DNA of 64,000 nt, taken from assembly GCA_049967655.1 (NCBI GenBank), contig JBMFSH010000003.1, positions 32,001 through 96,000 on the forward strand, given 5' to 3'. Made by a program: the position numbers and the translations under genes. Shown piece by piece: positions 2,580-24,785 of the stretch. The DNA is from Acidobacteriota bacterium. GTDB lineage: Bacteria; Acidobacteriota; UBA4820; DSQY01. Numbering within the stretch: the first letter of the stretch is position 1; each line of letters begins with the position of its first letter. The notes below the pieces were generated by a model. That model saw only the letters and a program-made list of their open reading frames with translations, had not been told where the DNA came from and made no database searches.

Positions 2580-3401
2580 ATGTCCGTCATCGCCATATCA
2601 CGGGGTTCCCTGCGGGCCGCAACGCAGCTCGCCCAAGGCCTGGGGAGCCGGCTCGGCAGCAGGGTAGTGGACCGAGAGGAGATCCTCGCCGCGGCCGAAC
2701 GCTACGGCATCGGCGAGACGGGTTTGGAGATGCGGCACATCCTGGCCAAACATCCGCCCGGCTTTTGGGAACGCTACGCCGAGGCCCGCCGCCACTACCT
2801 CGCCTGTTTCAAGGCGGCGCTGCTGGACGCGGTCCTGGAGGGGCCGCTCGTCTATCACGGGAACCTGGCCCACCTCCTCCTGAAGGACGTCCCCTTCGTC
2901 TTGCGCGTCCGGGTCAACGCCCCCATGGAAAACCGGGTGGAGGCCATGATGGCCGAGCAGGGGCTCTCGCGGTACGAGACGACCCGCCGAATCGAGGCCA
3001 TCGACAACGAGCGGAAACGGTGGACGGAGTTCTTATACGACGCGGATATCATGAGTGCCTCCCAGTATGACGTGGTCTTGAACCTGAACCGGGTCAGCGT
3101 CGGCGACGGTATCGAGATGGTCGCGTCGGCAGTCCAGAAGGAGGCCTTTCAGCGCACGCCGGACGCCATCCGCCGGGTGCGGGACCTGCGCCTGGCCACC
3201 GTGGCGGAGGTGCTGCTGATGAGCCATCCGGACACCTACGGGTTGCCCGTCCAGATTTCCGCCGATGCCGAGGGGGGCAGGATAGCGATCGAGCTTTCCG
3301 TCGAAGCGGGCGACAAGCGGTTGATCGAGGGGCAGATCCAGTCGGCGCTTCAAGATCTGGATGGGGTTCGCCATCTCGACGTCTCGGTCACGGTTGGGTA
3401 G
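2580..3401 (+). CDS. Cytidylate kinase-like family protein with C-terminal BON-like region
   Basis: AAGGAGG SD; MSVIAISRGS, VYHGNLAHLLL, LRVRVNAPME, YDVVLNL motifs. Confidence 0.8.
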   Translation: MSVIAISRGSLRAATQLAQGLGSRLGSRVVDREEILAAAERYGIGETGLEMRHILAKHPPGFWERYAEARRHYLACFKAALLDAVLEGPLVYHGNLAHLLLKDVPFVLRVRVNAPMENRVEAMMAEQGLSRYETTRRIEAIDNERKRWTEFLYDADIMSASQYDVVLNLNRVSVGDGIEMVASAVQKEAFQRTPDAIRRVRDLRLATVAEVLLMSHPDTYGLPVQISADAEGGRIAIELSVEAGDKRLIEGQIQSALQDLDGVRHLDVSVTVG

Positions 3402-20760: not shown

Positions 20761-22011
20761 TTAGGGAGCCGGCACTGGGTGCTTGCTCGGAAGAGCCGGA
20801 GCGGGCGCTGGAGGGGGCAACTCGGCGAGGGTGAAGCCCGCCACCCGCCCCAGCCGCGGTGCTTGGGCGGCTACCCGGATGGCCTCGATGTCGAGGAGAG
20901 AAGCGTCTCGGACAAGGTAAGGAGGGTCCACGTCCGCGCGGGAGAGGTCCTGGCCGGCGAAGCGCAGGGTCATCGTCCGTTCTCCCGCCTCCAGCGAGGC
21001 CTCCACCGAGGCGTAGGCCACCTCGACCTCCGCGCCCGAAGGCGACCGCCCCGTCAGGGTGGCCTGGAGCCGGTACGTTCCTGCCTTGGGCAGCTTGACG
21101 CGGACGGGCACCTCCACGGCCGAGACCCCCGTCGGATCGCGGAGGACCTGGCAAGGCCGGGCCCCGAGGATGCGGAAGCCACCCTCCGAAAGGGCCAGCG
21201 CGGCATGGCCGACGCGGTGGAGCGGTAGGCCATCGGCGGTGCCCGAAGCGTCCACCTTGACGTCCTCCATGCCGCCTCCCGGCTCCACCGGCAGGAAGCA
21301 GGAGTAAACGCCGTCACCGGCGGTGGCGTCGGGTGCAACGCCGTCATCGCGCAGGATCACGCGGACGGGCGAACCCGCCGAGGTGCTTCGGACCATGGCC
21401 GTCACGCGGAACCCGGGCAGGGGAGCCCCGCTATTCTGGTTGAACAGCTTGGCGTAGAGGACTGGATGGCCGCCGGGCGAGGAGACCATCTCCGAAAGGC
21501 TCACCCGCATCCGGTAGCCCGAGCCGTCCTGGACGGCCACCATGAAGGCCTTGGCTCCGCTCTGGGCGTGGCTGAAGTCGAGCGTGTAACGCCCCGGTGC
21601 GGCGGGGGAGATTTTCAGAAGGGTGGCCGTGGGCGGAAGATCCACAAGTCCCGACAGCTCAGCCGAAGAACCCGCTGCGAAAGCGGCCTCGGTCCGGCCG
21701 TCGGGCGCGAAGGGAGTCCCCTGCGGGTCCAGCAGTCGCAGGCCAGTTTCCGCCGTCGGGACGCCCACGGGCCACACCACGACCCTGGCGTCCGGGCCGC
21801 GGAGCACCACGGAGGCGCTGCTGTGGCGGGTGGCATCCACGACGAAGGCGTCGAGCGACGAGGTGCTGGCGAAGGGTCTCGGGGCCACGTAGGGAGTCTG
21901 GGGAGCGAAGCCCTGGCTCATCTGAGTGGCGGAGCCCGCGGCGAACAGGGAGAGCACGGGGAGGAGCGCCGCGAGGAGGACGGGTGTGCGATGGCTCTTG
22001 AACGGTCTCAT
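20761..22011 (-). CDS. Secreted DUF4785-like / choice-of-anchor X protein
   Basis: Signal peptide MRPFKSHRTPVLLAALL; LRDDGVAPDATAGDGVYS Ca-binding-like motif; C-terminal GTYRLQATL..PPYLVRD Ig-like domain. Confidence 0.75.
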   Translation of the reverse strand: MRPFKSHRTPVLLAALLPVLSLFAAGSATQMSQGFAPQTPYVAPRPFASTSSLDAFVVDATRHSSASVVLRGPDARVVVWPVGVPTAETGLRLLDPQGTPFAPDGRTEAAFAAGSSAELSGLVDLPPTATLLKISPAAPGRYTLDFSHAQSGAKAFMVAVQDGSGYRMRVSLSEMVSSPGGHPVLYAKLFNQNSGAPLPGFRVTAMVRSTSAGSPVRVILRDDGVAPDATAGDGVYSCFLPVEPGGGMEDVKVDASGTADGLPLHRVGHAALALSEGGFRILGARPCQVLRDPTGVSAVEVPVRVKLPKAGTYRLQATLTGRSPSGAEVEVAYASVEASLEAGERTMTLRFAGQDLSRADVDPPYLVRDASLLDIEAIRVAAQAPRLGRVAGFTLAELPPPAPAPALPSKHPVPAP

Positions 22012-22022
22012 GGGTTCCCCCC

Positions 22023-22865
22023 TCAAAAGTCGTACGACAGATAGGTGCCGATCGGCCGAAAATCGTTGCGGCGGTTGTGGTGGTGGTTGGCATCGGTCTC
22101 GAACCAGAGGGTACCCACCGCCTCCGCCGAATACTGGGCCACCATGCCGTCGTTGGCGCCGGGGAAGCCGCTCACCGAGGCGAGCGCCGCCAGGCCGTAG
22201 TCTTCCGCGTGGGCCCAGTCGTTGAAGATGGCCAGCCCGGTGTCCACCCCGGCGATGCAGTAGAAGCTCTTGGGGAGGGCGGGCCTGCCCGCCGTGCCGA
22301 AGAGCCAGTACTGGTTGTAATAGGCCATCCAGTCGGTGCGGCAATTATAGGTGGAGTTCGTGTTCTCGCCCACGAGGTCCACCAGCCAGCCCGTGAGCCA
22401 GGAGCCCGACAGCGTGCCTGCGAGGTCGGCCGCCTCGGAGCCGTCCTGCGGGGCGGCGATGGTGTTCACCCACCGCGTGGCGTTCACCACCGTCTGGTAG
22501 TCCGAGTTCCGGTTCGGGTTCGAGAAGATCCACCGCACAACCACTCCGCCGAAGGAGTGGGTGTCGATGACGAGGTCCGTAATTCCCTGCGTATTGACGA
22601 AGGAGGCGATCTGAGAGGCCACCTGGTCGCCCGCCACCCACATGTACTGGGTGCCGTCGTAGTGGCAGACGATGTAGGGCACGCTGTAGTTCTTGGTGAC
22701 CGCCGCGATCATGGGCGAAGTCCAGTAGGCGAGCGCCGTGGAGACATTCTGGAGATCCGCCCCACCCTTGCCGTGAACTAGGGCCACCCCCGTTTTGGCC
22801 CAGAGGTTCAGGGCGCACAACAGTAAAACCGAGACCAACAGGACGGTACGAGCTCTTCTTCTCAT
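22023..22865 (-). CDS. Secreted alpha/beta-hydrolase (lipase-like)
   Basis: AGGAGG SD; signal peptide; VALVHG, THSFGG nucleophile elbow, GSEAAD, NDGMV, NHHH. Confidence 0.85.
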   Translation of the reverse strand: MRRRARTVLLVSVLLLCALNLWAKTGVALVHGKGGADLQNVSTALAYWTSPMIAAVTKNYSVPYIVCHYDGTQYMWVAGDQVASQIASFVNTQGITDLVIDTHSFGGVVVRWIFSNPNRNSDYQTVVNATRWVNTIAAPQDGSEAADLAGTLSGSWLTGWLVDLVGENTNSTYNCRTDWMAYYNQYWLFGTAGRPALPKSFYCIAGVDTGLAIFNDWAHAEDYGLAALASVSGFPGANDGMVAQYSAEAVGTLWFETDANHHHNRRNDFRPIGTYLSYDF

Positions 22866-22894
22866 CCCGCTCCTCCTTGAGAGATCCATCCTTT

Positions 22895-23382: not shown

Positions 23383-23412
23383 TTGACCGAGGCCCGTACC
23401 GGAGGGTATGCT
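23383..23412 (+). promoter_or_regulatory. Sigma-70 promoter of the tyrA leader
   Basis: TTGACC-N18-TATGCT. Confidence 0.6.
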
Positions 23413-23438
23413 CGGGGAGAACCTGGAGGGAGCTGAAG

Positions 23439-23534
23439 GTGGATGACGGGTCGGACCGGATGAACAGGATCGGGCGCTGGGGCGTCGCGTACGCCTACTA
23501 TTACGCCTTCGACCCGTCGTGTCCGGCGCCCTGA
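23439..23534 (+). CDS. Tyr-rich attenuator leader peptide (MDDGSDR)MNRIGRWGVAYAYYYAFDPSCPAP
   Basis: GTG 23439 (GGAGG SD at 23425) or in-frame ATG 23460; TAC GCC TAC TAT TAC at 23490-23504; stop 23532-23534; precedes terminator and tyrA. Confidence 0.85.
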   Translation: MDDGSDRMNRIGRWGVAYAYYYAFDPSCPAP

Positions 23535-23555
23535 GGGTCCCGTTGGATCGCGATC

Positions 23556-23583
23556 AGGCCCGCCGGAGACGGCGGGCCTTTTT
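23556..23583 (+). terminator. Attenuator terminator upstream of tyrA
   Basis: AGGCCCGCCG-GAGA-CGGCGGGCCT-TTTT: perfect 10-bp stem, GNRA loop, U-tract. Confidence 0.88.
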
Positions 23584-23624
23584 CATGCCCCGAGGAGCAT
23601 CCGCACCTGACGATGGAGGAGATC

Positions 23625-24785
23625 ATGCCGAAACGGCCCAAACCGAAGGCGAAGGCGGCGATGGCGGAGGCGGCGCCGACGGGAGACCTGGAGCAGCACC
23701 GGCGCACCATCGAGGAGTTGGATGCCCGCATCCTCGACCTCGCCGCGCAGCGGATGGAGACGGCCCAGAAGATCGCCCGCTTCAAGATCGCGCGGCGCAT
23801 CCCGCTGCGCAACTTCGAGGTGGAGGCCCAGGTGCGCTCACGCATGGAGCGGCGATGCCTGGAGCGGGGGATTGATCCCGCTCTCGGACGGGAGCTGGCC
23901 TTGCTCCTCATCGGACATTCGCTCCTGGCCCAATCTCCCATTGTGGAGAGCAGCTACGAGGGCTCACTCCTTCGGGTCCTGGTGGTGGGCGGCATGGGCG
24001 GCATGGGCGGCTGGATGGCCCGCTTCCTGTCAGGACAAGGACATCAAGTGACCATCTTTGACATAGCCGGCGGCGACTCGTCCTTCCCTCGCGCCCAGAG
24101 CTTTGAGGATGGCCTGGAGAACGCCGATCTCGTCGTCCTGGCCGTCCCCATGAGCGCCTGCGCGGAGCTCCTGCGCCGACTCGGGCGCCTGCCCGCCCGC
24201 CCGGTCGTTGCCGAACTGTGCAGCCTCAAGCTCCACCTGCGCCCGGCCCTGGAGGCGGCCCGGTCCGTGGGGCTGCGCGTGGTCTCCTTCCACCCCATGT
24301 GGGGCCCGGAGGCGAGGCTCCTGAGCGGCAAGCGGCTCCTTCTGGTGCGTTCGGGCAACGAACGGGAGGAGGAGCTCGTAAGGGGCCTCTTCGCGCCCAC
24401 CAGCGTGACCATCCATGATCTCTCGCTGGAGGAGCACGACCGGAGGATGGCCGTGGTGCTGGGGCTTGCGCACTTGGTCAACCTCGGTTTCGCCAGGGCC
24501 CTGGCCCTGTGCGGATTGTCCCCGGAGGCGCTCCGGGAGGCTGCCGGCGTGACCTTCGGCAAGCAGCTCCGGACCACGCTGGAGGTGGTTTCGGAGAACC
24601 CCGATCTCTACTTCGAGATTCAGCGCCTGAGCGGTTCCACGTCGGAGCCCTTGGAGCGGCTTCATGAGGCCCTTGGAGACTTCAAGAGAGCGGTGGAGGC
24701 CGGCGACGCCGCGGCCTTTTCCGCCTACATGGAGGAGGCAAAGGCCCGACTGTCCCATGCGGGGGCGTTCGAGGAGTGGGTCTGA
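23625..24785 (+). CDS. tyrA: Bifunctional chorismate mutase / prephenate dehydrogenase
   Basis: GGAGGAG SD; AroQ domain (RRTIEELDARILDLAAQR); GGMGGMG Rossmann motif, HPMWGP, EEHDRRMA..LGLAH. Confidence 0.9.
   Translation: MPKRPKPKAKAAMAEAAPTGDLEQHRRTIEELDARILDLAAQRMETAQKIARFKIARRIPLRNFEVEAQVRSRMERRCLERGIDPALGRELALLLIGHSLLAQSPIVESSYEGSLLRVLVVGGMGGMGGWMARFLSGQGHQVTIFDIAGGDSSFPRAQSFEDGLENADLVVLAVPMSACAELLRRLGRLPARPVVAELCSLKLHLRPALEAARSVGLRVVSFHPMWGPEARLLSGKRLLLVRSGNEREEELVRGLFAPTSVTIHDLSLEEHDRRMAVVLGLAHLVNLGFARALALCGLSPEALREAAGVTFGKQLRTTLEVVSENPDLYFEIQRLSGSTSEPLERLHEALGDFKRAVEAGDAAAFSAYMEEAKARLSHAGAFEEWV

Follow-up and report, generated by a model that had tools for sequence, protein, structure and literature searches.

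A probable tyrosine-sensing leader-peptide attenuator upstream of aroQ-tyrA in an uncultured Acidobacteriota lineage

The window, by which we mean the whole analyzed stretch of 64,000 nucleotides of Acidobacteriota DNA, carries on its forward strand a gene for chorismate mutase fused to prephenate dehydrogenase (aroQ-tyrA), preceded by a promoter-like site, a short tyrosine-rich ORF and two overlapping predicted hairpins. The features of the locus are as follows:

23383..23412, + strand: promoter-like site of the sigma-70 type (TTGACC, 18 nt, TATGCT), from a motif scan
23425..23432, + strand: Shine-Dalgarno-like GGAGGGAG of the leader ORF, from the sequence
23439..23534, + strand: leader ORF of 31 aa, GTG to TGA, from ORF reading and the conserved start
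23490..23504, + strand: control codons Tyr-Ala-Tyr-Tyr-Tyr (TAC GCC TAC TAT TAC), from the sequence
23523..23566, + strand: predicted antiterminator (CCGGCG/CGCCGG, CCTGA/TCAGG, GGTCC/GGATC; 17 bp; -22.4 kcal/mol), from folding
23556..23583, + strand: intrinsic terminator (10-bp stem, GAGA loop, U-tract; -23.3 kcal/mol), from scan and folding
23615..23619, + strand: Shine-Dalgarno sequence GGAGG of tyrA, from the sequence
23625..24785, + strand: aroQ-tyrA, chorismate mutase fused to prephenate dehydrogenase, 386 aa from ATG 23625, from Pfam domains

A sequence-only reading of this DNA had already named most of these parts, and we found in place its promoter, the Shine-Dalgarno sequence ahead of the leader, the Y-A-Y-Y-Y cluster (four Tyr in five codons, at 23490, 23496, 23499 and 23502), the stop at 23534, the 10-bp GNRA terminator with its U-tract and the downstream chorismate mutase/prephenate dehydrogenase. 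Nine of the ten pairs of the terminator stem (23556-23579) are G-C, and TTTT follows. Sites of the TTGACC-N18-TATGCT type occur twice in 1.2 kb in the promoter scan of the window, against 0.1 in shuffles, and the predicted transcription start is at ~23419. The start of tyrA is likely ATG 23625; the alternative ATG 23613 is missing in the congener G002. Divergent from tyrA, the minus strand encodes a secreted-looking 288-aa protein (22023-22889) that carries a lipase-like motif of the GxSxG type (HSFGG) and matches no Pfam family; a 527-aa ORF (20761-22344) comes after it.

The leader had been given a length of 24 to 31 aa. Its longer form, led by GGAGGGAG and starting at GTG 23439, is the likely one because all four genomes of genus g1 retain a Shine-Dalgarno-led start 31 codons ahead of the stop. 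The shorter form did not hold: its ATG 23460 is GTG, TTG or CTG in three congeners and is not preceded by a Shine-Dalgarno sequence. All 13 leaders of the family have an in-frame start with an upstream purine run resembling a Shine-Dalgarno sequence (judged by eye), and the window's leader peptide has no match in NCBIfam. Stop-codon readthrough into TyrA was considered and rejected: leader and tyrA share a frame in the window and in L009, yet all three congeners have them out of frame, and a stop follows within 37 codons in 6 of the 13.

The aroQ-tyrA product scores above the Pfam cut-offs for CM_2 (46.3 bits), PDH_N (30.1) and PDH_C (25.7), matches the T-protein 2pv7 of the PDB (E 1.5e-11) and is the sole PDH_N match in a profile search of the genome. 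Against PRK11199, the NCBIfam equivalog for E. coli-type TyrA, it reaches 111 bits, below the cut-off of 273, and the other tyrA equivalogs also stay under their cut-offs. Because the Pfam cut-offs are passed and the equivalog cut-offs missed, the gene is, by its sequence, a divergent aroQ-tyrA fusion with predicted enzyme activity. A TyrA tree of 30 rows, with the partial L013 and L039 and distant matches excluded, joins genera g1, g3 and g4 and an outside clade of 7 rows in one group (100/100), within which it does not resolve the order. Genera g2, g5 and g6 and family f2 of the class gave no PDH_N match, and several of these genomes are >95% complete; those of g6 still have trpE with its leader. 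Tyrosine auxotrophy or another route is possible in genomes of this kind.

The class sample comprised 30 genomes, and the 14 that carry this tyrA fall in genera g1, g3 and g4. The earlier reading had proposed looking for a Tyr-rich leader ORF and a terminator before tyrA orthologs, and promoter, Tyr-cluster leader, stop and terminator were indeed found together at 13 of the 14 loci. These leaders were chosen by eye from three-frame translations and, stemming from three genera, are not independent of one another. Their ORFs have 23-31 codons with 2-4 clustered Tyr codons, and the stop lies 26-39 nt ahead of a GCCC(G/A)CC hairpin. A TTGAC-N17/18-TANNNT site is located 130-149 nt ahead of the stop in 13/13; the terminator hairpin is equally constant, with a short U-tract in several g4 leaders and in L011. 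Over the last 20 positions of the 13 leaders, Tyr makes up 40 of 260 codons vs. 33 of 2291 in control frames, i.e., an enrichment of about tenfold; 23 of these codons are TAC and 17 are TAT, and the rest of the peptide has diverged. Trp occurs once in the 260 codons, so that the Trp codon mentioned in the earlier reading is no conserved part and Trp sensing was rejected.

At the fourteenth locus, L007 (G018:C318:1-110), which lies at a contig start, the end of an unrelated ORF takes the leader's place right at the stop codon; antiterminator and terminator are retained despite this displacement. The ORF end (31 aa) has no Pfam match, and we take it to resemble the tail of an IS transposase. In L011 (G017, about 2630-3000) an insert of ~370 nt, like a small mobile element, separates the attenuator from tyrA and is flanked by duplicated GTGCATCATG.

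Among 179 strict terminators of the genome, only that of the window has a preceding short ORF with at least 3 Tyr in 7 codons. The scan as a whole returned 14 rows in which a short ORF upstream carries an amino-acid cluster, and three of the others are the His and Trp leaders listed below. Two Tyr within 3 codons were found in 3 of 121 frames whose end lies 15-48 nt upstream of a terminator, namely the window leader and one other site counted twice. A looser scan, over 1768 hairpin sites with Shine-Dalgarno filters, gave 22 rows; it included the same four Tyr, His, trpE and trpB2 leaders, and no Phe, Thr or branched-chain leader was found in it. Inspected by eye, pheA of this genome showed no leader. 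The three companions of the tyrosine leader each show a promoter-like site, a predicted antiterminator and a terminator:

G000:C1:173406-173545, + strand: His leader (HHHH) before hisD
G000:C10:56852-56710, - strand: Trp leader (YWWY) before trpE
G000:C38:12089-11940, - strand: Trp leader (WWW) before trpB2 (TrpB2-type gene)

The leader amino acid is the pathway product in all four cases (Tyr, His and two Trp), and the four terminators have GCCC-N-CC in common, where N pairs as G-C, A-U or U-A. There are no T-box (RF00230) matches in the genome, and Rfam, including Phe_leader, Trp_leader and His_leader, gave no match in the window at the gathering threshold.

A search for the terminator-type pattern recovered trpE leaders in g1, g3, g4 and g6, and the 13 trpE leaders (L069-L112) were compared with the tyrA leaders, terminators being excluded from the alignments. 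The four g3 tyrA leaders (L010, L011, L012 and L014) align to the trpE leaders with a mean Z of 4.6-5.7 and to the g1 and g4 tyrA leaders with a Z of about 0. The tyrA leaders of g1 and g4 align to each other (Z about 2.4) and neither group aligns to the trpE leaders; homology of the window's scaffold to trpE or his leaders was not supported, with a mean Z of about 0 outside the terminator. An alignment of nine rows (four g3 tyrA and five trpE leaders) needs hardly any gaps and keeps the stop, the antiterminator strand and the terminator in register; where the trpE rows read TGG TGG, the g3 tyrA leaders have TAY CGG in 4/4. Judging from these alignments, the g3 tyrA attenuator appears to be a homologue of the trpE attenuator with its Trp codons recoded, and tyrosine sensing would therefore occur on two RNA scaffolds in one family.

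Copying from trpE to tyrA is the simplest reading because the trpE scaffold is present at trpE in four genera and at tyrA only in g3, and because g1, g4 and L046, a locus from outside the class, share the other type. Since the TyrA tree does not fix the order of the clades, the direction of the swap is one that we infer. We consider it probable that Tyr-specific stalling attenuation operates on two unrelated scaffolds, an older one, which is that of the window, and a duplicated trpE attenuator retuned in g3, i.e., a natural specificity swap within one family. The swap concerns the g3 relatives and not the window's own leader. If this is true, attenuators evolve as portable modules that are reprogrammed by few codon changes; the g3 trpE and tyrA leaders are natural pairs with one scaffold and different control codons, on which the origin and the specificity change of attenuators can be tested. 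The his leader of G017 (L083) and the trpB2 leader on G000:C38 have the antiterminator strand CCGGAGGGC in common, and their terminators are nearly identical. This hints at another scaffold swap, between His and Trp; with the terminator excluded, their alignment reaches a Z of only 1.4-2.2.

Of the 10 bases in the terminator 5′ arm, folding places 8 within the antiterminator (23523-23566). The CCGGCG/CGCCGG pairing put forward earlier survives as part of this hairpin; with its 6 bp it was too small, the predicted hairpin having 17 bp, and CGCCGG (23561-23566) belongs mostly to the terminator 5′ arm and includes the first loop base. In our ribosome model, RNA is masked to 12 nt past the A-site, all upstream RNA is masked too, and the transcript ends in the terminator loop. 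Under these settings the window's antiterminator stays intact with the ribosome at any codon through 23511; from 23514 onward it is progressively lost until the stop is reached. To free the terminator 5′ arm takes 9-18 kcal/mol when the ribosome sits on the first Tyr and 1-6 when it is at the stop, in 13/13 leaders; the earlier expectation of an antiterminator that is free at a Tyr stall and covered at the stop is thereby borne out in silico. A previous mask model, which let RNA behind the ribosome re-pair, gave no switch. The antiterminator beats 150 shuffles (at most 7 exceedances) in 8 of the 13 leaders, and the window's own is not stronger than its shuffles (53/150). Untranslated full-length folds of the 13 leaders give a P(terminator) from 0.00 to 1.00. 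For the full transcript at equilibrium, the terminator prevails even when the ribosome sits on Tyr (P 0.94-0.99), and control must therefore depend on folding order, which is how trp attenuation is controlled according to the available part of PMC1183508.

The GGCG/CGCC core of the antiterminator is present in 9/9 rows of g1 and g4. Its four pairs never vary and therefore lend no covariation support. In g1 the GGCG site falls within Pro-Ala sense codons; four g4 leaders have it spanning the stop, and in L009 it lies beyond the stop. Its distance from the last Tyr codon nevertheless stays at 22-26 nt; this constant spacing despite a shifting codon context points to a constraint at the RNA level. 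The window can also form a hairpin of -25.2 kcal/mol over 23472-23531, in the pause/protector position, which is not consistent in homologues, and no conserved 1:2 (I:II) pause/protector hairpin was found across the 13 leaders. Sequestration of the tyrA Shine-Dalgarno sequence by the terminator, i.e., translational control, was rejected, as that sequence lies 35 nt beyond the stem.

From the sequence comparisons and the folding model, aroQ-tyrA is very probably controlled by a ribosome-coupled, Tyr-sensing transcription attenuator of the classical type. The recurrence of the Tyr leader and overlapping predicted hairpins in 13 of 14 related genomes suggests that the element likely switches tyrA on when tyrosine is short. 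When charged tRNA-Tyr is scarce, the ribosome would stay on the Tyr codons and cover the RNA to about 23515, leaving 23523 onward free; the 17-bp antiterminator could then form before the terminator 3′ arm is made, and transcription would run into aroQ-tyrA. When tyrosine is plentiful, a ribosome that has moved beyond codon 23514 or thereabouts, or has reached the stop, would cover the antiterminator 5′ strand, so that the terminator would be freed and transcription would end near 23583. We infer that the leader is translated, that transcription terminates near 23583, that the response is specific for Tyr and that control is kinetic, not set at equilibrium. The conserved parts, together with the matching leaders for His at hisD and for Trp at trpE and trpB2, support a classical Tyr attenuator. 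Apart from the pause hairpin, which is not consistent in homologues, the locus shows in sequence and folding the features of classical leader-peptide attenuators that can be tested there. The mechanism is textbook; the specificity appears to be new.

Other readings of the same leader have to be weighed against this one. The chorismate mutase domain feeds both branches, and the element could be a mixed Tyr and Phe attenuator, similar to aroR of C. glutamicum, in which Phe matters as much as Tyr or more. Stalling at the window's Phe codon 23508 keeps the antiterminator in the model, Phe stands directly before the Tyr pair in 4/4 g3 leaders, and no leader was seen at pheA. However, Phe contributes 10 of the 260 leader codons, so that Tyr prevails 4 to 1; L003, L004 and L005 are without Phe, and its position is not conserved, which makes such a mixed sensor unlikely in our view. 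Phe may contribute to stalling in a Tyr attenuator, because codon 23508 is also in the permissive zone.

It is also conceivable that the leader is translated and that control is exerted by arrest of the nascent peptide or by the Pro-rich tail (through translation speed or EF-P) instead of tRNA-Tyr charging. Pro accounts for 41 of the 260 codons, in the leader tails, and the g1 leaders end in CCC-TGA, like one group of E. coli pheL leaders (CCC-UGA) in the available text of PMC3082878. Tyr alone, however, is conserved at the peptide level, and the Pro codons coincide with the C-rich strand of the antiterminator and lie where stalling already favors termination in the model; we give this explanation very little weight. 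A constitutive, leaky leader terminator or a chance ORF that senses no amino acid would fit the shuffle result for the window's antiterminator and the missing covariation, but hardly the tenfold Tyr enrichment, conserved on two unrelated scaffolds, or the pathway-matched leaders at three other loci, and we regard it as extremely improbable. The Tyr-sensing attenuator is the reading that we retain in what follows.

E. coli uses TyrR for tyrosine control, and Firmicutes use T-boxes; the Tyr T-box riboswitch (RF00230) senses uncharged tRNA-Tyr via a terminator and an antiterminator. Unlike there, sensing at the window locus would be by translation. The literature comparisons below refer to the available parts of the cited papers. 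One close likeness is to pheL-pheA of E. coli, where a leader with cognate aromatic codons, a terminator and an antiterminator precede a chorismate mutase fusion gene (PMC3082878; PMC11802643); the window differs in having Tyr for Phe codons, in controlling aroQ-tyrA, in its lack of an Rfam match and in its phylum. With trpL and hisL of E. coli, it shares the order of start, control codons and region II, followed by mutually exclusive hairpins II:III and III:IV that are about equally stable (PMC1183508); it differs in that no conserved I:II pause hairpin was detected, in the amino acid and in having no match to a sequence family. The aroR leader before aroF of C. glutamicum is another leader-peptide attenuator of aromatic biosynthesis that contains a Tyr codon; it reads Phe-Tyr-Phe and responds to Phe, not Tyr (PMC11802643), whereas the leaders of the family are dominated by Tyr (2-4 per cluster) and precede tyrA.

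Attenuation before a tyrA-containing operon has been predicted for Shewanella and Vibrio aroF-tyrA (PMC2659441; PMC1173090). The Shewanella aroF element is labelled an "attenuator sensing tyr-tRNA" (PMC2659441, Table 3), and putative attenuators before tyrA operons appear in PMC1173090 (Table 7), where the available part makes no mention of leaders; both are predictions, and, unlike at the window locus, these parts describe no Tyr-codon leader. The six Shewanella attenuators covered in the available part of PMC3223726 serve His, Thr, Trp, Phe and the branched-chain amino acids, with Tyr absent, and almost all attenuators predicted in Acidobacteria have no assigned function (PMC2965389, available part). 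The parts at hand of PMC4833913 and PMC3082878 contain nothing on Tyr leaders, and PMC3315439 concerns Enterococcus tyrS. No experimentally tested Tyr-specific leader-peptide attenuator was found in the literature searched; an earlier prediction, for instance in the main comparative surveys of attenuation, is possible. Tyr is not among the amino acids for which that literature gives an experimental demonstration of a leader-peptide attenuator; the compact, conserved Tyr leader offers a direct test and a candidate part for a Tyr biosensor, and a predicted set of His, Trp and Tyr attenuators is documented in an uncultured Acidobacteriota lineage.

Four more distant homologues in the phylum (L015-L018) showed no Tyr leader. 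A covariance model built on 11 leaders and run against 151 phylum genomes matched 18 genomes at E 0.001, with strong matches only at g1 and g4 tyrA; no further copies were found among these genomes, and 10 matches outside the family looked like ordinary terminators. We also read 31 further loci from outside the class, skipping 8 duplicates, with a placement that is rough for distant matches. Among them, L034 has a YY leader and a hairpin without a U-tract, L046 has the window-type terminator and antiterminator with one Tyr and no in-frame start, and L066:1173-1266, from an alphaproteobacterial (Microvirga) record, has a 16-codon YY ORF, a terminator and a predicted antiterminator before a prephenate dehydrogenase-like gene; no Tyr leader was seen at the remaining loci of the 31.

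Two short ORFs rich in other amino acids were noticed along the way. Directly before proC (Pfam P5CR), L157 (G016:C81:4065-4154, - strand) combines a 29-codon Pro-rich ORF with a GC-rich terminator and is a candidate proline leader; it was not seen at the 2 other readable proC loci of 6. In another Acidobacteriota family, L027 (G034:C45) has a Phe-rich short ORF and a terminator before a chorismate mutase-like gene, a candidate Phe leader.
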